This document shows, piece by piece, positions 5,387 through 44,322 of a DNA stretch of 59,075 nt. Every line of letters begins with the position of its first letter. Positions within the stretch are counted from its first letter, which is position 1. The stretch comes from Minisyncoccota bacterium (GTDB taxonomy: Bacteria; Patescibacteriota; Minisyncoccia; Phycocordibacterales; UBA9973). The translations under genes were made by a program, and so were the position numbers. The notes under the pieces were generated by a model. It made no database searches, was not told where the DNA came from, and saw nothing but the letters and a program-made list of their open reading frames with translations. The stretch lies in contig DATJJU010000012.1 of NCBI GenBank assembly GCA_035491955.1, positions 1 to 59,075 of the forward strand, written 5' to 3'.

Positions 5387-5459
5387 GGGAGTATAGCTCA
5401 GTTGGTAGAGCGCCGAGCTTATACCTCGGTGGTCGATGGTTCGAGTCCATCTACTCCCA
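5387..5459 (+). tRNA. tRNA-Ile, anticodon TAT (UAU)
   Basis: Cloverleaf GGGAGTA/TACTCCC, D arm GCTC-AGTTGGTA-GAGC, anticodon arm CCGAG-CTTATAC-CTCGG, T arm GATGG-TTCGAGT-CCATC, discriminator A. CCA is not fully encoded. Confidence 0.85.
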
Positions 5460-5520
5460 CCTGTTTGTATTTCATATACAAATAAAGTATAAATCGTTAT
5501 AATTCAGCAATAAACTGAAT

Positions 5521-6087
5521 ATGAAGAACATAATTACTCAGTTAGGGATAGGAATTTTGGTTTCAATTGCAGGAACTTTTGCTTCTTTATCTATAGCATC
5601 ACTTTATAATAAACAAGATGTTACTTGGAATACAGACCGTTGTGTTTACAGCGATACTTTAGTTGCCGATTGCTATTATTATAAAGTCCCTGGTTATTCA
5701 ATTGGTCAGATTTATATTTTAAATTCAGGTTCAACTATAGCAAAAAATGTTAGGGTTATTCTAAACGATAATATCCCTCCAGAAAATGTTATGGTCATTG
5801 ATACCCCAGCTACTATTAAAATTGAAAATAGTAAGACAGTGATTACTGCAGAAAGTTTACAACCTGACGGAGGTGATTTAGATATCGCTTTTAAAACAGT
5901 TACAGATTCAGATACATATGGTATATATAATCTTTCTACAGACTCAGGTCCAATCTCACCTTTCGATGCGAGCGGTCCATGGTGGCAGTTTTCAACAGCT
6001 AGAAAAATCTTTGTTCTAACAGTCAGTATCTGTTCACTTCTAATAGGCTTCTTTATCGCTAGGCGAGGTTTAAACAGAGAAGTTTAA
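5521..6087 (+). CDS. Hypothetical membrane-anchored protein (N- and C-terminal TM helices)
   Basis: 188-aa ORF in an AT-rich stretch just 3' of tRNA-Ile. No family recognised. Confidence 0.45.
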   Translation: MKNIITQLGIGILVSIAGTFASLSIASLYNKQDVTWNTDRCVYSDTLVADCYYYKVPGYSIGQIYILNSGSTIAKNVRVILNDNIPPENVMVIDTPATIKIENSKTVITAESLQPDGGDLDIAFKTVTDSDTYGIYNLSTDSGPISPFDASGPWWQFSTARKIFVLTVSICSLLIGFFIARRGLNREV

Positions 6088-6100
6088 CTATTTATTTCGT

Positions 6101-6466
6101 ATGTCTCCGGAAGATTATTTCAAACAATCACAAGAGTCTGGTCAATCGTTTTTTGCAAGATGGTCCATTCTTTCTGGGGGCACATTGACCTTACTTATCG
6201 CGTTTCTTGAATCATTAAATGGTAATATAACTCATATTTTATTACTCCGCTTTATAGAAATATTTTTAATTATTTCCCTCATCACCTCCTCACTCCACTC
6301 GTGGCTTGTAAGTAGGATAGCTTTTTATAACTCTTCTCAATCTAATCGAACCAGACATGTAATATACTCAAAACTACAGACAGTTAATCACCGTGTTGCC
6401 ATTATTTTCTACATCATTGCGATAGTTCTTCTTTTTATTTTTATAAATGCAAATTTAATAAAATAG
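6101..6466 (+). CDS. Hypothetical membrane protein
   Basis: 121-aa ORF with 3 hydrophobic helices in an AT-rich stretch. No family recognised. Confidence 0.4.
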   Translation: MSPEDYFKQSQESGQSFFARWSILSGGTLTLLIAFLESLNGNITHILLLRFIEIFLIISLITSSLHSWLVSRIAFYNSSQSNRTRHVIYSKLQTVNHRVAIIFYIIAIVLLFIFINANLIK

Positions 6467-13789: not shown

Positions 13790-13973
13790 AAAAGTAGTCT
13801 ACCATTTTTTATTCATTACAACGTAAACATGTATGGGTTTGGACTTTAGGAACAGGTTTAGGCACATAGTTTTGTATAAAAAAATGGTATCCCGATACAA
13901 TTAAAAGAAGTATTAAAAGTATTAAAATTGTGTTTCTCATAGTTTCCGAACATCTCGTTCTTGGGCGAGTTTG

Positions 13974-14060
13974 CGGAGGATGTGGGATTCGAACCCACGG
14001 ACCCGATTAAAGGTCGACGGTTTAGTAAACCGTTGATTTCAACCACTCATCCAATCCTCC
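13974..14060 (-). tRNA. Class II (long variable arm) Ser-type tRNA whose anticodon reads ACT (ACU)
   Basis: Minus strand: acceptor GGAGGAT/ATCCTCC, discriminator G, 3-bp D stem GAT/ATC with an 11-nt loop, anticodon arm ACGGT-TTACTAA-ACCGT, long variable arm CGACCTTTAATCGGGTCC, and T arm GTGGG-TTCGAAT-CCCAC. The body is clearly Ser-like. The A34 anticodon is unusual and needs software confirmation. Confidence 0.7.
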
Positions 14061-18343: not shown

Positions 18344-19153
18344 TTACTTTTCAAACTTTTTCTCAACTTGCTCTGCAACCCATTTCCCAAATGTATCTAA
18401 AAAACCAGCGAGCTTGTTCACATCATCGGTCGGATTAATAGCGAGCTCAAGCGCCATTTTCATATTTTCTTCCTGTTCAGGATAATACTTTGAAAAGACT
18501 TCATAAGAAGGGTACAGATCTCGTGTGAAGGCTTGCTCTTTATCCATTACCAAAACGAATCCGGCGCGGATTATTCTTTTCATAACCCAGCGACACCACA
18601 TCTTAATGTCTTCACTGTCTGGATTATTTACTGTTTTTTCCTTTGCTCTTTGAATAATGTTTTCAAGGTTGCGATGAAAATGACTGGCTGTTTCTAAATC
18701 AGCACGGAAAGGAGGAATCTTCTCAGCGAGATCTTCACCGTAAATGCAGGCACTCTGTGTCTTGATGGTAAAACGATCGCCAAAAAACTCATCTTCATCA
18801 AAAACTTCATCGTAAGAAATGAAACCCATTTCGATACCGGTTGAGAAAGCGTATTTTTGTTCAAGTTCTTTTTGAACGCTATCTACCCAAGAACGATCTA
18901 TCTCCTCATATTTTTTAGTAATAACAGCAAAAGTGTCTATATCGGAAATTCCCTCTATCGCTTCGCCACGAGAAACAGTACCACGAACATAAATGCTATG
19001 AATCACGTCGCCTAAATGATCAAGATACGCCTGTTTTATATCCGCAACCGCTTCTTTCCAGGGCGATTTGAGCTTATCTACACCGGACTCACTAACAATA
19101 AACCCATCTTTGTCAGTTTTGAGCAATCTGCCGATTTTGAGAATTTCAGTCAT
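18344..19153 (-). CDS. Nucleotidyltransferase-domain protein (ANT/AadA-like architecture)
   Basis: Pol-beta-type NTase motif GTVSRGEAIEGISDIDTF, with a helical C-terminal half. Confidence 0.6.
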   Translation of the reverse strand: MTEILKIGRLLKTDKDGFIVSESGVDKLKSPWKEAVADIKQAYLDHLGDVIHSIYVRGTVSRGEAIEGISDIDTFAVITKKYEEIDRSWVDSVQKELEQKYAFSTGIEMGFISYDEVFDEDEFFGDRFTIKTQSACIYGEDLAEKIPPFRADLETASHFHRNLENIIQRAKEKTVNNPDSEDIKMWCRWVMKRIIRAGFVLVMDKEQAFTRDLYPSYEVFSKYYPEQEENMKMALELAINPTDDVNKLAGFLDTFGKWVAEQVEKKFEK

Positions 19154-19226: not shown

Positions 19227-19313
19227 GGAGACGTGTCGGAGTGGTCTAACGTACCTCCTTGCTAAGGAGGCAGGCTGTAAAAGGTCTCAAGGGTTCGAAT
19301 CCCTTCGTCTCCG
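19227..19313 (+). tRNA. tRNA-Ser, anticodon GCT (GCU)
   Basis: Acceptor GGAGACG/CGTCTCC, discriminator G, anticodon arm CCTCC-TTGCTAA-GGAGG, long variable arm, T loop TTCGAAT. Confidence 0.85.
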
Positions 19314-19356
19314 CAGGAACTGACCATTAAATACAATTAACGTATACGAGGTAAGT

Positions 19357-20571
19357 ATGGCATGGGATACAAAAATAGAAGATGGAATAGAAAAGGTGTA
19401 CTTTATCGATGAGGAGACTAAAAAGGAGACTATTGTTTTTGATATTGATAGCAAGAATGAGTTGATAAAATTTTATCCGCGTGAAGAGAAATTTTTCCTA
19501 AAGGAAATTGTATTGAGTGGCTTCAAGGAAGTACCTGAGAATGTAATTGTATATGGAACTTTTAAGGGAGGGTTACTTTATTTTCTGAATGACCGCTTTA
19601 GTGATAAAAAAGTTTTTCACTTTGAAATTTTAAGAGATGGAAAATCTCTAATAACAAATACAAAAAATGGATTAAAAGTCTTACTAGCTTATGATGATGT
19701 GTTGAGTATGGTACAAAAACTTACGTCGATATCTTATGAAGCAAAAATAGAAAGAGGGGAGGAAGTTGATCTTAGTCTTTATAATACTTTCCCTAAATAT
19801 TTTAAAAAAAGTAATGCTGAGAAATCTTCCAGAAATAAAGCTCGTAGACTATTAAGAAATCTCGATATCTCTACTATCCCTCAATTAAAAAACCAAGAGG
19901 CGCAAAAAATCGTCGATTATTTTATTGAACTTATAGAAAAAAGATCTAATAAACAAAGCTTCTTTAATTTAGCAAAACTTAAACTAGATGAAGTTTCTAT
20001 TGAGAATGTTATTCTGAAATTGAAAGATTATATTGAGAATAATGCTAAGGAGTCAGAATGGACAACTTTTTTGATCGAAAATTTATTTGTTATTGATTCG
20101 AAATACATCTATGCGGTTCCTGAAATTAATTTAACTTTAGGGGGTAATCGTCGAGTAGATTTTGGACTTATAGATTCTGATGGTTACCTTGATATCTTCG
20201 AGATTAAAAGACCAAACACAAAGATTTTTGAAACACAACCTGATCACGGTAATTATTTTTGGCACGAACAAGCAGTGCAAGCCATAGTGCAGGCTGAAAA
20301 ATACCTTTATTCGGCGACCAGAAAAGGATCACAGCTCGTCGAAGATCTTCAACGCGAAAGGGGTGTCGAGCTACCATTTAAAGTTATTAGACCACGAGCG
20401 TTTCTGCTTATGGGCTCTTCTTCTCAATTTAAAAATGTAAATATGGTGGATGATTTTCAAGTTTTACGCCGATCCCAAAAGAATATTGAAATTATTTTAT
20501 ACGATGATCTTCTTAAGAGAATACAAAATCAAAAAGGAAAAGTGTTTTTAAGCTCTCAAGAAAGTAGTTAG
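19357..20571 (+). CDS. Shedu-like (DUF4263) PD-(D/E)xK nuclease with a novel N-terminal region
   Basis: The C-terminal half shows ESEWTTFLIENLF, RRVDFGLID (D codon 20158-20160), YLDIFEIKRP (D-x-x-E-x-K at 20191-20208), QAIVQAEKY, RAFLLMGSS and IEIILYDDLL. This order matches the DUF4263/SduA core as I remember it. Confidence 0.6.
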   Translation: MAWDTKIEDGIEKVYFIDEETKKETIVFDIDSKNELIKFYPREEKFFLKEIVLSGFKEVPENVIVYGTFKGGLLYFLNDRFSDKKVFHFEILRDGKSLITNTKNGLKVLLAYDDVLSMVQKLTSISYEAKIERGEEVDLSLYNTFPKYFKKSNAEKSSRNKARRLLRNLDISTIPQLKNQEAQKIVDYFIELIEKRSNKQSFFNLAKLKLDEVSIENVILKLKDYIENNAKESEWTTFLIENLFVIDSKYIYAVPEINLTLGGNRRVDFGLIDSDGYLDIFEIKRPNTKIFETQPDHGNYFWHEQAVQAIVQAEKYLYSATRKGSQLVEDLQRERGVELPFKVIRPRAFLLMGSSSQFKNVNMVDDFQVLRRSQKNIEIILYDDLLKRIQNQKGKVFLSSQESS

Positions 20572-20605
20572 TGAAGATGATTGAGAATTCATTTTAGATA
20601 AAACA

Positions 20606-21586
20606 ATGAATAAGCAAAAAAATAGGACCGAAGAAATTGTAATGAAGGTACGGGACCTCATCAACGATTCCACAATATCAAAAACAAAGATTTTTTCAAG
20701 AAAAAAGATAGGTGATTGGAGTCAGTTTTTTACAGCGTTAGATACTATTGAAGATACATGTCTTGCTATTACAGCTTTTTGTAAAGATTCGGAAATTTTA
20801 CTAGAAAAGAATCCGTACCTTGTTGTATACGGAATTCTTCAAACACTTTTTGTTCAGCAAGATGCAGTCGATTTTTTAAAAATATCACTTTTTGGAAAAG
20901 ATAAAGGAATTAATTGGAAAGATAAAAAACATCTACCGCTTTGGGAAATTAGACAGATACGTAATGAAACTATAGGTCATCCTGTTAAAACAAAGAAAAA
21001 AGGTTCAGACTCTAAATATGAAAACGATGAAGTCACTTCATGTACCATTGATCGATCCTCAATCTCGAGAGAGGGTTTTAGTTACATTCTCTGGATGAGT
21101 TCCAAAACGCATCATAGAAGTGTAAACTTTAACGAGGTTATAAAATTACAAGATTTTTACCTAAGTGAAGAGCTTAAGATTATAATGAAAGAAATTGAAA
21201 AAGAAGAAAGTGTACACAAGGTAAAATTTAAAGGAGAGAAACTTCTTGATATTTTAAATAAACCATCCCTATATAAAATTAATCTTATTTATGGACTACG
21301 CTGGGAGGACCATTTAGCATGGCCGAGTTTTGACCACTACTATGAAAGGTACAAAAGAATAAGGAATGGTATTGAAAATCGTTATGGGAAATTTGGTGAG
21401 ACATTAAGAATTCCTGGTACAGAAGAAATTGTAAAAAAACTAGACTACATATTTTCAAAAATAGATGGATTTAAAAAAATACAGTTTGATAATTATGAGT
21501 TTGAAGTATATGTAGATGCGCTGGATTCAGGTTTAAAGGAATTGGGAAACCACCTTGAGACAATTGATCAGGAGTTTGAAGTATAA
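20606..21586 (+). CDS. Hypothetical protein with a HEPN-like R-x5-H motif
   Basis: 326 aa, helical. WEIRQIRNETIGHP is encoded at 20951-20983 (R-N-E-T-I-G-H at 20960-20980), preceded by helices (YGILQTLFVQQDAVDFL) as in HEPN bundles. No family recognised with certainty. Confidence 0.45.
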   Translation: MNKQKNRTEEIVMKVRDLINDSTISKTKIFSRKKIGDWSQFFTALDTIEDTCLAITAFCKDSEILLEKNPYLVVYGILQTLFVQQDAVDFLKISLFGKDKGINWKDKKHLPLWEIRQIRNETIGHPVKTKKKGSDSKYENDEVTSCTIDRSSISREGFSYILWMSSKTHHRSVNFNEVIKLQDFYLSEELKIIMKEIEKEESVHKVKFKGEKLLDILNKPSLYKINLIYGLRWEDHLAWPSFDHYYERYKRIRNGIENRYGKFGETLRIPGTEEIVKKLDYIFSKIDGFKKIQFDNYEFEVYVDALDSGLKELGNHLETIDQEFEV

Positions 21587-21628
21587 AAAATAAGATATTA
21601 AGAATAACGTAATTTTTTATAAAACTTT

Positions 21629-23026
21629 ATGAAGATTTCAAAATTAACAATTAAGAACTTTAAAATATTTTCACCCGATGACGAGTTTGTTATTGATGAT
21701 CTAAATGTTCCCGATGGGGTAAATGAAGGTACAGGGCTAAATGTTTTTGTTGGTGAGAATGGAAGTGGTAAAACCTCTCTTCTTGAAGCCATCGCTTTAC
21801 CCCTACTTGAGTATAAAGCAGAGAATTTTTCAATTGAAAATTTTAATGATTTTGAAGAAAAAGTAGAAATAAATATTTTCTCGAAGGATAACTTCACTGT
21901 TGACGGCACAATGCCAAGAAGTTCTTTTGAAGCAAAGGGGTTTTCTTTTGAAGCAGGTGTTAGAGCAAGAGATAGCAAAAACTATTTATCTTCTATTATT
22001 GTGAGTGATCAAAAATTTATTAAATCTGATCCTTCAAAACCAAAAGATGGAAGTCCTGATTTAAGAAGTGCGGTCAATAACCCTTTTAAAGGGAAAAGGT
22101 TTAATGAAAACGATGTTCTATTTTTGGATAAGAATAGATTATTTCAGACACGTTCAGGAAACTTTAATACAACCCGTTTTGATAGGTTGATGGAAGATTT
22201 TAGTTATCAATATTTGAAAAATAACGAAATAACTGATTTAAATGAGGAACTAGGTAAAAAAATAAGAAAAGAAGTTGAAAACGACTTTCTTGATCAAGCA
22301 GTGTCGAAATTTAGAGAAATTTGTGATCACGAAGTCAGGTTAGATTTTTTAGATAATTTAAAGCCATTTAAAGAATCCTTCTTTTCTATTAAAAAGGATA
22401 ACGAACAGCAGATATTAATAAATAACCTCGGTTCTGGGTATGAAATGATATTTTGTTTACTCTACTCGTTCTATCTAGCAAAACAGACTGGGAAAGAGCT
22501 TATAATTTTGATAGATGAACCAGAGCTACATTTGCATCCAGCTTTACAAGAAAAATTCATTCAATTTTTAATTGAATTTTCAAAAGAGGCACAGATTTTT
22601 ATCACTTCCCACTCACCATTAGTAGTTAAACAAGTTTTATTAAATGAAAAAGTAAAAGTAAGAATGCTAAAAAACGGTTCGGAAGTATTGGATATCGGGA
22701 ATAGACTACTTTCGTATTTATCAGCAAATGAAATAAACTATCTTGCTTTTGACTTGCCGACAGAAGAATATCATAATGAGCTTTTTGAAGAGTTAAAAAT
22801 TAAAGATGATGGTGCTCGAGCCACACCTCTTAATTTGAAAGATTTTGATATTTACTTTTTTCAGACTAGTAAGGGAGAACCTGCAAATTATCCATACAAT
22901 GGGGCAAGTAATCAGGTCAGTATCCATACCCACTTGAGGACACAGATACACCACCGAGGAACAGCGGGGCAACCAAATATTACTGATATAAAAAAGTCGA
23001 TTGAAACAATGCGTACATTCTTTTAA
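21629..23026 (+). CDS. SMC/ABC-type (AAA_15/AAA_21-like) ATPase without a recognisable nuclease domain
   Basis: N-terminal KL.IKNFK.F, Walker A GENGSGKT (21752-21775), signature-like LGSGYEM, Walker B ILIDEPELHLHP (~22502-22540), H-loop ITSHSP. The ~130-aa C-terminal extension has no Toprim, HNH or other motif I can see. Confidence 0.7.
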   Translation: MKISKLTIKNFKIFSPDDEFVIDDLNVPDGVNEGTGLNVFVGENGSGKTSLLEAIALPLLEYKAENFSIENFNDFEEKVEINIFSKDNFTVDGTMPRSSFEAKGFSFEAGVRARDSKNYLSSIIVSDQKFIKSDPSKPKDGSPDLRSAVNNPFKGKRFNENDVLFLDKNRLFQTRSGNFNTTRFDRLMEDFSYQYLKNNEITDLNEELGKKIRKEVENDFLDQAVSKFREICDHEVRLDFLDNLKPFKESFFSIKKDNEQQILINNLGSGYEMIFCLLYSFYLAKQTGKELIILIDEPELHLHPALQEKFIQFLIEFSKEAQIFITSHSPLVVKQVLLNEKVKVRMLKNGSEVLDIGNRLLSYLSANEINYLAFDLPTEEYHNELFEELKIKDDGARATPLNLKDFDIYFFQTSKGEPANYPYNGASNQVSIHTHLRTQIHHRGTAGQPNITDIKKSIETMRTFF

Positions 23027-23039
23027 CTTTTTAGTTTAG

Positions 23040-23798
23040 ATGAATAATTTAAAAACCTCCGTCCTGCTCATCGCCCACAACGAAGAATCCCACATAAGCG
23101 ACAGTATTATGTCAGTACTTCGGCAGAATAGGAAAGCGGATGAGATAGTAGTGGTGTGCCATAACTGTACTGATAGGACAGTGGCAATAGCGAAAAGTTT
23201 TGAAGCTCAGGAAAATCTAAGGGTGGTTGAATACAGTGGACCAGAAGGTGTTGTCTATGCGCGCATCAGGGGATTTGAAGAAGTGAAGGGAGATATTGTG
23301 GCGTGTTTGGATGGGGATAGTGTGGCAGATAGGAAGTGGCTGGAGAATATTGTTAAGCCACTGGAGAGAGATAGTGGAGTAAGTATTGTGGCAGGATATG
23401 TGTATTTGAGGGGTTCATGGTTTGCGAGAGTGACGAGCTGGTGGCAGTTTGTCATTGTGAAGAAGATTTTGAAATGGGATTTGAATGCATTTGCATGGGG
23501 AGCGAGCTTTGCGTGTCGGAAAAGTGACTATGAAAAAGTCGGAGGATTGGCACCGCTTATTGAATTGAAGGATAAGTTAGGACTGCATTTTTGGGCAGAG
23601 GATTTTTATCTATCGAGGGCGTTGATGCAGATAGGGAAGCTTCACGTCGCGCTTAGTGCGAAAAGCTATACAGAAATACCAAGCTGGAAAGTGGATCTAA
23701 GTACAGCACCATTGAAGGAATGGATGGAAGACAACAATGCTATAATAAAGTTCTATGGAAAACGAACCAAAATCAACACCACAAGAGCTAAGAGATAA
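23040..23798 (+). CDS. Family 2 glycosyltransferase
   Basis: SVLLIAHNEE, VVVCHNCTDRT, and the LDGDS motif. Confidence 0.75.
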   Translation: MNNLKTSVLLIAHNEESHISDSIMSVLRQNRKADEIVVVCHNCTDRTVAIAKSFEAQENLRVVEYSGPEGVVYARIRGFEEVKGDIVACLDGDSVADRKWLENIVKPLERDSGVSIVAGYVYLRGSWFARVTSWWQFVIVKKILKWDLNAFAWGASFACRKSDYEKVGGLAPLIELKDKLGLHFWAEDFYLSRALMQIGKLHVALSAKSYTEIPSWKVDLSTAPLKEWMEDNNAIIKFYGKRTKINTTRAKR

Positions 23799-43717: not shown

Positions 43718-43791
43718 GCGGACGTAGCTCAACTGGTTAGAGCACCCGCCTGTCACGCGGGAGGTTACGGGTTCAAGTCCCGCCGTTCGCG
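43718..43791 (+). tRNA. tRNA-Asp (GTC)
   Basis: Acceptor GCGGACG/CGTTCGC, anticodon arm CCCGC-CTGTCAC-GCGGG, T loop TTCAAGT, discriminator G. Confidence 0.85.
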
Positions 43792-43875
43792 CAAAATTTT
43801 AAACCTTAGCCCCCACAGTGAGTAAAGATTTTATTGAGGCTTAACAAAATAAATGATTTATTGTATAAATGCGAT

Positions 43876-44322
43876 ATGAAAAATAAAACTTTCCCTATGC
43901 TTCTTATTCTTATAATTATTGCATTGGCTACCTATATTGTTGTTGGGCAAAAACATCTTTTTAATTTACTGCCGCAATCTTTCACTGTTAAATTAGGTGC
44001 TACAGATTCAAGTGCTTCTGGTTCTAGTAGTTACACCTGGGTACTGAGTTTCAACGGCAACACTTTAACAAATGCAGTCGAACACTACTCTGTTGGCAGA
44101 GTTGGTTTTACTGGTTCAGGAGATTGTAATTTTCAGAACGGAACTTGGGTAGAACAAGGAACAGAAGATGCCTGTAAAGATGACGGAACCTCTTTATTTG
44201 GTATTCCATTAAATCGCACTAATCTCGAACAGAAGATTAGGAATGGTGTATTTGTAAAAGGAAATCCTGACAATTGTGGAGCAGATGTTGCCGGGGCTTC
44301 TCCTTGCTATCAAATAAATTAA
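43876..44322 (+). CDS. Hypothetical secreted or membrane-anchored protein
   Basis: Signal/anchor MKNKTFPMLLILIIIALATYIVV with several Cys. The ORF opens at 43834. I prefer ATG 43876 (TATAAA 6 nt upstream). Confidence 0.45.
   Translation: MKNKTFPMLLILIIIALATYIVVGQKHLFNLLPQSFTVKLGATDSSASGSSSYTWVLSFNGNTLTNAVEHYSVGRVGFTGSGDCNFQNGTWVEQGTEDACKDDGTSLFGIPLNRTNLEQKIRNGVFVKGNPDNCGADVAGASPCYQIN

Follow-up and report, generated by a model that had tools for sequence, protein, structure and literature searches.

The DNA analysed here, referred to below as the window, is a stretch of 59,075 nt (positions 1 to 59,075 of contig DATJJU010000012.1, assembly GCA_035491955.1, Minisyncoccota bacterium). The window is a piece of chromosome carrying genes for FtsH, RecG, LigA, GatA, TypA, a release factor and type IV pili. 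Its attribution to the Candidate Phyla Radiation (CPR) was found to be right, and the chromosome is Paceibacteria/Nomurabacteria-like, its TypA sharing 87-89% identity with proteins named Candidatus Nomurabacteria and Paceibacterota. Directly 3' of a tRNA-Ser(GCU) gene lies an islet of three genes, which is the subject of the present analysis. Gene 1 encodes the Shedu nuclease SduA, gene 2 a protein of an unannotated family, and gene 3 an ABC ATPase with an additional C-terminal domain. The islet is followed by a native glycosyltransferase gene of the GT2 family. The positions of these features are given in Table 1.

Table 1. The islet, its borders and the sites discussed in the text, numbered from the first nucleotide of the window (aa, amino acids; GC3, GC content at third codon positions; AF2, AlphaFold2; ORF, open reading frame).
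Feature	Position	Strand	Composition	Basis or remark
tRNA-Ser(GCU)	19227-19314	+		ARAGORN; left islet border
Gene 1, SduA, 404 aa	19357-20571	+		Pfam, PADLOC and PDB matches
SduA catalytic core D268, D279, E282, K284, Q312-x3-Y316	20158-20304	+		HMMER alignment to 8PS4
Gene 2, 326 aa, unannotated, mostly alpha-helical family	20606-21586	+		Homologue searches, AF2 model
Gene 2 candidate active-site motif R119-N-E-T-I-G-H125-P126 (Rx5H)	20960-20983	+		Alignments
Gene 3, ABC ATPase with C-terminal domain, 465 aa	21629-23026	+		Pfam, PADLOC and PDB matches
Gene 3 N-terminal ABC ATPase core, ~340 residues	21629-22645	+		Pfam, PADLOC, PDB
Gene 3 C-terminal conserved domain, residues ~340-465	22646-23026	+		Invariant alignment columns, AF2 model
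Right junction, 13-nt spacer before native GT2 gene	23027-23039	no strand		ORF positions
GT2 glycosyltransferase gene	23040-23798		GC 43.6%, GC3 0.45	Native flank

The three ORFs are co-oriented and closely spaced, with intergenic gaps of 34 nt (genes 1 and 2) and 42 nt (genes 2 and 3). The first ORF begins 42 nt after the end of the tRNA gene, and the last stop codon is separated from the GT2 start by 13 nt. No terminator-like site was found on the + strand within the islet, and promoter-like sites were no more common there than in shuffled sequence; for these reasons, co-transcription of the three genes is probable.

The composition of the islet differed markedly from that of its surroundings. 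The GC content of positions 19315-23030 was 31.6%, compared with 43.3% in the remainder of the window (z = -7.4), and it was lower than in 959 of 959 segments of the same size taken elsewhere in the stretch, whose minimum was 38.4%. GC3 was 0.25 in each islet gene versus approximately 0.35-0.55 in nearly all other genes of the window, the two genes flanking the islet having values of 0.36 and 0.45. Change points in GC content were located at about 19430 and 22863, at most approximately 170 nt from the islet borders, with the drop starting just 3' of the tRNA. Both the gene arrangement and the AT-richness had been pointed out in a preliminary description of this DNA, and both were upheld, the former by ARAGORN and the ORF positions and the latter by computation.

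Gene 1 matched the Pfam model PF14082 (SduA_C/DUF4263) with 97.6 bits (cut-off 27; E = 1.1e-27) over model positions 2-159 of 159, and it also matched 19 PADLOC models of SduA, the best at 2.7e-31. Among the entries of the PDB, it was matched to 8PS4, named 'Shedu effector protein' (4.6e-18), and to the SduA entries 8TI8/8TI9. The protein consists of an N-terminal region (residues ~1-200) and a C-terminal PD-(D/E)xK nuclease domain (~206-391). In the HMMER alignment to 8PS4, 'nrrvDfglidsdgyLDifEiKrp ... ivQAEKY' pairs with 'nrfiDialvdangnLDiiEvKkp ... imQAEKY'. The core D...D-x2-E-x-K...QxxxY is intact, and its residues are identical to those of 8PS4. No match was found for the N-terminal ~200 residues. 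Shedu is a single-gene system; the N-terminal part of its proteins is variable, and a lack of matches is usual for its sensor domains. Judged from these alignments, gene 1 encodes a bona fide Shedu nuclease.

For gene 2, no match was obtained in Pfam, NCBIfam or PADLOC. A word-indexed search returned 82 homologues, mostly from Patescibacteria, and an exhaustive profile search returned 2,283 representatives at 50% identity, of which 695 were found at E ≤ 1e-30, nearly all of them 300-330 aa long. In a metagenome scan, at least 401 relatives were confirmed among at least 599 pattern matches. No relatives were found on viral contigs in the IMG/VR scan. The plasmid search yielded one homologue with 30% identity, WP_011783375.1, on plasmid pMAQU01 of Marinobacter nauticus VT8. 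This protein (L111, 12912-13862 of the record) is annotated as hypothetical and is encoded among a SIR2-family gene, insertion sequence elements and a PAPS-reductase-family gene.

The alignment of the gene 2 family contained the invariant residues D46, T51, G76, Q79, Q84, Q85, R116, R119, G124, H125 and P126. Conservation was then counted in 139 representatives that are 22-37% identical to the window protein. H125 and Q182 were present in all 139, R259 in 138, and R119, G124 and P126 in 137 each, while D86 was found in 126. Position 120 was occupied by N in 113 of the 139 proteins and mainly by H, S or D in the others. Because R-N-x3-G-H-P and other residues are near-invariant at 22-37% identity, the conservation of gene 2, at the level of alignment, is the pattern of an active site. 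Three members of the family are fusions (P0093, 574 aa; P0111, 542 aa; P0202, 487 aa) with 170-260 extra C-terminal residues, in which no Pfam domain was detected; they might hint at partners or regulation.

In the preliminary description, gene 2 had been called a HEPN-motif protein. According to a 2013 survey (PMC3710099), the HEPN domain is defined by an Rx4-6H motif whose R is followed by a polar residue and by a conserved acidic residue in helix 2, and inserts between its helices are frequent. The AF2 model of gene 2 (predicted local distance difference test score, pLDDT, 87; predicted template modelling score, pTM, 0.78) shows long helices at residues 37-68, 70-96 and 107-122. These are followed by a low-confidence loop, a three-stranded sheet (143-174) and helices up to the C-terminus, including a long one at 175-207. 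R119 is placed at the end of helix 107-122 and H125 in the following loop, with D86 in helix 70-96. At the level of modelled secondary structure, R119-x5-H125 thus has both the motif and the position of a HEPN site, and D86 fits the acidic residue of helix 2. The motif, RNETIGH, is present, and its position agrees with the model.

The genomic context of gene 2 was evaluated in 88 analysable loci, 76 of them non-redundant. In the 57 loci with room for an upstream neighbour, this gene was co-oriented and at most 20 nt away in 27 cases, and at most 120 nt away in 39. The corresponding numbers for the downstream neighbour were 8 and 20 of 52 loci. In the subfamily to which the window protein belongs, the median gap was 10.5 nt upstream versus 266 nt downstream. 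Because the upstream gaps are short and co-oriented and the downstream gaps long, gene 2 typically closes the operon of another gene, as its translationally coupled last member.

The 41 coupled upstream partners fall into at least 26 unrelated groups, among which components of restriction-modification (R-M) systems dominate. These comprise N6_Mtase/Eco57I (5), HsdM_N (3), HsdS (3) and MvaI/BcnI restriction endonucleases (3), together with EcoRI methylase, N6_N4 methyltransferase, type ISP and type II methyltransferases. Other partners of a defence type were SduA (2, the window included), RhuM, GIY-YIG, PDC-S05 and PDC-S13. On the downstream side, HsdR (L078, in the order HsdS-gene 2-HsdR), HsdS (L059) and an AbiU2 HEPN protein (L083) were encountered, and in some loci gene 2 was solitary (L009, L011).

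The GC content of gene 2 homologues was below that of their distal flanks in all 20 loci compared (median difference -7.4 points), with extremes of 35% versus 64% and 48% versus 71% (homologue versus flanks). Of 34 loci, 5 had the gene 2 cassette abutting a tRNA 3' end (≤600 nt), compared with 8 of 286 control genes in those loci (Fisher p = 0.007). A would-be sixth case, L009, was left uncounted because its called start overruns the tRNA. The tRNA-adjacent position observed in the window is therefore a recurrent feature of the gene 2 cassette. In L005 (7801-10344), a tRNA-Asp is followed by a gene 2 homologue 126 nt on; next come a large serine recombinase and an operon for type I R-M, which holds two extra genes, one of them trypsin-like. 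The locus could show the route of the cassette to tRNA flanks.

The N-terminal part of gene 3 matched the Pfam families AAA_15 (2e-29), AAA_21 (5e-26) and SMC_N (1e-10). The best PADLOC matches were AriA (3e-30), NsnB (4e-29), GajA (8e-24) and PtuA (1e-23). The nearest solved sequences were those of the class 2 OLD nuclease 6P74, PtuA, AriA and GajA, in the ATPase core only. No NCBIfam model came near its cut-off, PtuA reaching 59.7 bits versus 500. Walker A (G42-T49), Q173, the signature residues G268/G270/E272, Walker B (D296-E297) and H328 were invariant in 24 homologues. By these matches, the gene 3 ATPase belongs to the OLD/PtuA/AriA/GajA defence clade of ABC ATPases, in agreement with the SMC/ABC-type assignment made previously.

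The gene 3 family comprises at least 962 proteins at E ≤ 1e-20 among the candidates scored. Its conservation is unusually high: the best 120 homologues, spread over several CPR lineages (Giovannonibacteria, Levybacteria, Woesebacteria), are 60-76% identical over their full length, including the C-terminal domain. One homologue, with 52% identity, was found on viral contigs, and none was found on plasmids at E ≤ 1e-20.

The C-terminal domain of gene 3 contains the invariant elements SANExN, EEYHNELxEELK and H433-T-x-x-R437-x-Q-I-H441-H442 (nt 22925-22954). The AF2 model of residues 340-465 (pLDDT 88.8, pTM 0.83) consists, in domain numbering, of three helices (27-35, 40-55, 64-75) followed by a hairpin (82-91), a further helix (93-102) and a last one (112-123). 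R98-x4-H103, corresponding to R437-x4-H442, ends helix 93-102, and the acidic helix EEYHNELxEELK lies upstream. As modelled, this layout fits the positional definition of HEPN, with an acidic second helix, an insert and a motif ending the third core helix. Kinship between the gene 2 family and this domain was also considered and was rejected, as hhalign detected no relationship between the two.

Beyond the window, gene 3 was found in five distinct contexts. In L093, the ATPase gene follows type III Mod and Res genes with a gap of 4 nt, and in L099 it follows two D12 methyltransferases and an AlwI restriction endonuclease with a gap of 15 nt. Two islands (L095 and L105/L106) carry a PLD-SNF2 helicase and an MmeI-type methyltransferase; L105/L106 additionally encodes a protease, an SNase and a serine recombinase. 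In L097, the ATPase gene stands alone and abuts the 3' end of a tRNA-Gly. Gene 3 homologues were AT-richer than their flanks in 6 of 6 loci, the sixth being that of the viral-contig homologue.

Histidine-phosphatase (His_Phos_1) proteins, assigned from cluster size, appear to be encoded directly before gene 2 homologues in L024, L029 and L041, overlapping them by 4 nt. Such a protein is also encoded in the Woesebacteria ATPase island (L105-L109, 7656-8276), and it may represent another defence-associated family.

For the question of co-occurrence, all collected loci, translated in six frames, were scanned with profile hidden Markov models (HMMs) for both families, those of gene 2 and of gene 3. 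No gene 2 homologue was detected in any gene 3 ATPase locus, and the family ATPase was found in gene 2 loci only at L017. This locus is 100% identical to window positions 20932-23034 over 2,103 bases and ends inside the 13-nt spacer of the right junction; because of this identity, it represents the same element in another sample. The same gene 2-ATPase-GT2 junction was present in a third sample (JGI 3300045391 contig, with an identical GT2). L017 and the JGI 3300045391 contig start approximately 50 nt apart in gene 2 (20883-20932), just 5' of the RNETIGHP codons, and these coincident assembly breaks may reflect strain-level variation of the left half of the islet.

A second SduA gene followed by a gene 2 homologue was found in L003/L004, where the pair stands behind AbiEii and a type III R-M system. 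The SduA proteins of the window and of L003 share 23% identity over 121 residues, whereas their gene 2 proteins are 65% identical, which indicates that the SduA-gene 2 pairing arose independently. As genes 2 and 3 were nowhere found together beyond this element, the islet is regarded as a mosaic whose three modules are separable and not as a single system.

Taken together, these results make it fairly probable, in our judgement, that the islet represents a small defence island, acquired horizontally by a Paceibacteria (CPR) chromosome, whose three single-gene modules are separable and probably share a transcript. We infer the insertion event itself from the composition of the islet and from the behaviour of its gene families elsewhere. 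The proposal of a candidate defence island in the preliminary description is supported: Shedu is real, the ATPase falls in a defence clade, and the two other genes occur elsewhere almost only in R-M or defence contexts.

In such an island, SduA would cut invading DNA, as suggested by its family membership, and would fill the place of the usual R-M first line. Gene 2 may encode a standalone helical, HEPN-like protein of ~320 aa acting as a metal-independent RNase or a similar toxic effector. Gene 3 could combine sensor and effector in one protein by the logic of PrrC/RloC, the ATPase restraining the C-terminal effector until infection. Both would then serve as an abortive-infection-type back-up behind a DNA-targeting first line.

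Arrangements of this kind have been described. HEPN genes and ABC-HEPN fusions (PrrC/RloC) are typically tied to R-M operons as second-line defence (PMC3710099). In PrrC/RloC and ABC-HEPN systems, the ATPase or the R-M enzyme silences a suicidal RNase until the first line has been disabled (PMC3710099; 10.1101/2024.01.29.577857). In addition, genes that lie within defence systems usually code for defences as well (10.1101/2024.01.29.577857).

A more far-reaching proposal, which we rate somewhat below even, is that genes 2 and 3 both represent new anti-phage families acting as second-line abortive back-ups. Gene 2 would be a widespread single-gene family, comprising at least 2,283 clusters at 50% identity and occurring both in CPR and in bacteria with large genomes, and gene 3 a new PrrC-like class. 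Under this proposal, gene 2 would have a new variant of a helical fold with R-N-x3-G-H-P as its catalytic site, and it would spread as an AT-rich cassette to the 3' ends of R-M or defence operons and of tRNAs. In gene 3, an OLD/AriA-type ABC ATPase would gate a novel C-terminal R-x-Q-I-H-H effector domain.

Several observations weigh against the interpretation of the islet as an acquired defence island with RNase-like back-up genes. The first group concerns the insertion. In agreement with the preliminary description, no integrase, transposase or recombinase was found among the ORFs between 16.6 and 27 kb, and the window showed no directly repeated copy of the tRNA 3' end when up to three mismatches were allowed. 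Neither an empty site nor an integrase or att repeat documents the insertion. For the left-flank protein, the only GTDB relative (63% identity) lies at a non-syntenic locus in a genome of ~32% GC, and an exact look-up of the GT2 protein returned one other contig, which carries the islet with the same junction.

The second group concerns context. The islet lacks an R-M partner, although the gene 2 and gene 3 families usually have one. About one tenth of the coupled upstream partners of gene 2 are housekeeping genes (RecR, GMP synthase, aminotransferase, GT2), so its insertion at operon tails is not strictly defence-specific.

The third group concerns the HEPN assignment. A Pfam search with 40 gene 2 members gave only sub-threshold noise and no HEPN match; the noise consisted of DUF7380 on the C-terminal helix and, in two members, HEPN_AbiU2 below threshold (E 0.007). 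The hhalign comparison of gene 2 with an AbiU2 HEPN neighbour gave a probability of 0.1, and the PDB profile search returned nothing relevant. Foldseek searches of the gene 2 model against PDB and BFVD returned only generic helical bundles at E ≥ 0.6. As all these profile and fold comparisons failed, 'HEPN-like' is a reasonable candidate designation for gene 2, based on its motif and the modelled position of that motif, rather than a demonstrated membership. For the C-terminal domain of gene 3, no match was found in Pfam, PDB-profile or Foldseek searches (the last at E < 0.6), and the model also allows a His-Me/HNH-like reading because it places a beta-hairpin before a helix.

Among the alternatives, genes 2 and 3 could form a two-gene system in which an ABC-ATPase sensor is paired with a HEPN-like effector, following the logic of PARIS (AriA/AriB) or Septu (PtuA/PtuB), with Shedu as a separate unit. 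Their adjacency in the same orientation, 42 nt apart and with no terminator between them, would suit such a system, as would the 100% identity of the pair in L017 and the JGI 3300045391 contig. Defence ABC ATPases of this clade usually act with a partner nuclease (10.1101/2024.01.29.577857), and AriA, NsnB, PtuA and GajA are the best PADLOC matches of gene 3. However, L017 and the JGI contig carry the same element and thus provide no independent evidence for the pair. Apart from this identical element, the ATPase family occurred in 0 of 76 non-redundant gene 2 loci, and a gene 2 homologue occurred in 0 of the 5 other distinct ATPase contexts, even by profile HMMs. Moreover, the ATPase has its own strongly conserved C-terminal domain, and gene 2 is typically coupled to its upstream and not its downstream neighbour. 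A two-gene system is therefore considered unlikely.

It also appears improbable to us that genes 2 and 3 are selfish modules for addiction or stabilisation, or accessories with a regulatory role, carried along at the 3' ends of R-M or defence operons that are mobile. In favour of this reading, the composition of both is foreign in every case, and both stand at the tails of operons beside very diverse genes, a few housekeeping genes among them. Neither gene 2 nor the gene 3 C-terminal domain has a structural or profile match to any nuclease, and gene 2 is often solitary (L009, L011). On the other hand, the polar site of gene 2 (R119, H125, D86, Q84/Q85, R116) is near-invariant at a median identity of 26%, which points to catalysis and not to a structural role. 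All ATPase motifs of gene 3 are intact, and no cognate antitoxin-like small gene was a consistent neighbour.

The idea that all three genes constitute one system, a Shedu variant with HEPN-like and ATPase subunits dedicated to regulating its nuclease or backing it up, has very little probability. The genes are tightly spaced, share a GC3 of 0.25 and are probably on one transcript, and the order of SduA and a gene 2 homologue recurs in L003/L004. Nevertheless, Shedu is established as a single-gene system, and the solved structures 8PS4 and 8TI8 are homo-oligomers. SduA accounts for only 2 of the 41 coupled upstream partners of gene 2, the two SduA proteins are barely alignable, and the ATPase was never found beside SduA or gene 2 elsewhere. 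The one-system and two-gene-system readings were both rejected on the grounds of missing co-occurrence and divergent SduA partners.

Finally, it is hardly credible that the region is native, that is, an old and AT-rich piece of chromosome that evolves fast, and not an insertion at a tRNA: the lack of an integrase, att repeat or empty site, the tight junctions (42 and 13 nt) without a scar and the same right junction in two other samples would be in line with it, but the 12-point GC deficit and the low GC3 (0.25) coincide exactly with the three genes, the gene 2 and gene 3 families are foreign wherever seen and enriched at tRNA 3' ends, a serine recombinase is located in the same island in two cases (L005, L106), and the nearest homologues are only 66-76% identical and lie in other contexts, while TypA relatives reach 89-90%.

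With the islet regarded as an acquired defence island, its significance can be considered. The preliminary description had stated that defence systems in CPR bacteria are poorly catalogued. This is now only partly true, because CPR defensomes have since been surveyed at scale, in 3,004 metagenome-assembled genomes, with the highest defence density in Paceibacteria; the same survey notes that unknown systems probably remain undetected in CPR (PMC12259885). As a defence islet, the island is an ordinary example, and given these surveys the presence of Shedu in Paceibacteria is unsurprising. Its value lies in the two uncharacterised passenger families, genes 2 and 3, with strong evidence from context. 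If validated, they would extend the defence catalogue by two single-gene systems and supply further cases of RNA-directed or suicide back-ups coupled to restriction, in CPR, where known systems under-explain phage resistance. WP_011783375.1 from the cultured Marinobacter nauticus VT8 offers a practical starting point for the gene 2 family.

Other features of the window were recorded separately. The 269-aa protein encoded just upstream of the tRNA (18344-19153, - strand) has a nucleotidyltransferase-looking G-S...D-x-D signature and no Pfam match, and its sole GTDB relative (63% identity, L008) likewise lies beside a tRNA cluster. Directly 3' of tRNA-Ile(TAT) (5387-5461), two AT-rich ORFs (5521-6087 and 6101-6466) were observed, with GC3 of 0.21 and 0.30 versus ~0.42 and no Pfam match; they may be a second small acquired cassette at a tRNA. 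A third tRNA-adjacent AT-rich gene, an ORF of 162 aa (43834-44322; GC3 0.25, GC 36%, no Pfam match), starts 42 nt past tRNA-Asp (43718-43792).

The only tRNA-derived repeat detected (D12; 19260-19282 versus 20043-20065, 78%) lies inside the tRNA body and SduA and was treated as chance. ARAGORN also predicted a tRNA-Ser with anticodon ACT (A at position 34) at 13973-14060 (- strand), with a clean cloverleaf and a long variable arm. A tRNA-Ser with this anticodon is believed to be unusual for bacteria. The conventional tRNA-Ser(GCT) at 19227 serves the same codon box.

The islet genes were compared with known systems. Gene 1 resembles Shedu (8PS4, 8TI8) in its full SduA_C domain, its nuclease core, its length (404 aa) and its layout of a variable N-terminal part and a C-terminal nuclease. 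It differs in its CPR host and in the coupled gene that follows, which canonical single-gene Shedu loci do not need.

For the ABC ATPase core of gene 3, PARIS, Septu, Gabija and Menshen (NsnABC) are the closest systems. In contrast to them, gene 3 has no TOPRIM/DUF4435, HNH, UvrD-helicase or NsnA/NsnC partner or domain, either in the islet or in the five other contexts.

Gene 2 was compared with the standalone HEPN families linked to R-M systems (Abi2/AbiD/AbiF, ApeA, AbiU2, DUF4145; PMC3710099). It is similar to them as a standalone helical protein, as modelled, with an Rx5H motif that ends the third long helix, has a polar residue behind its R and is preceded by a helix with an acidic residue, and also in being habitually encoded in R-M operons. 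It shows no detectable sequence or fold similarity to any of them, and it adds a three-stranded sheet, a C-terminal helical region of ~150 aa and the invariant residues Q182, H204 and R259, which are absent from the HEPN definition.

PrrC/RloC (PMC3710099) share with gene 3 an N-terminal ABC ATPase and a small conserved C-terminal domain in which R-x4-H ends a helix. Further similarities are the polar residue after R, the acidic helix upstream and relatives located in, or ending, R-M operons. The ATPase of gene 3 is of the AAA_15/AAA_21 type (OLD/PtuA/AriA), and AAA_13, to which PrrC and RloC presumably belong, is not among its 12 Pfam families at E ≤ 1. Its C-terminal domain has no HEPN profile or structure match. 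Its relatives are tied to type II, type III and MmeI-type R-M systems and are not embedded in type Ic. No R-M gene is present in the islet, while the relatives do follow R-M genes. By analogy, the shared logic would be that of an ATPase-gated suicide effector behind a DNA-targeting first line.

Genes 2 and 3 matched none of the HEC or PDC models of PADLOC-DB 2.0.0. They differ from the genes recognised by guilt-by-embedding (10.1101/2024.01.29.577857) in being mostly appended after the last gene of an operon and not nested within it. They resemble them as co-oriented passengers of R-M operons, sometimes located between subunits (L078, L059). By this analogy, both genes appear to be good candidates for new single-gene defences.

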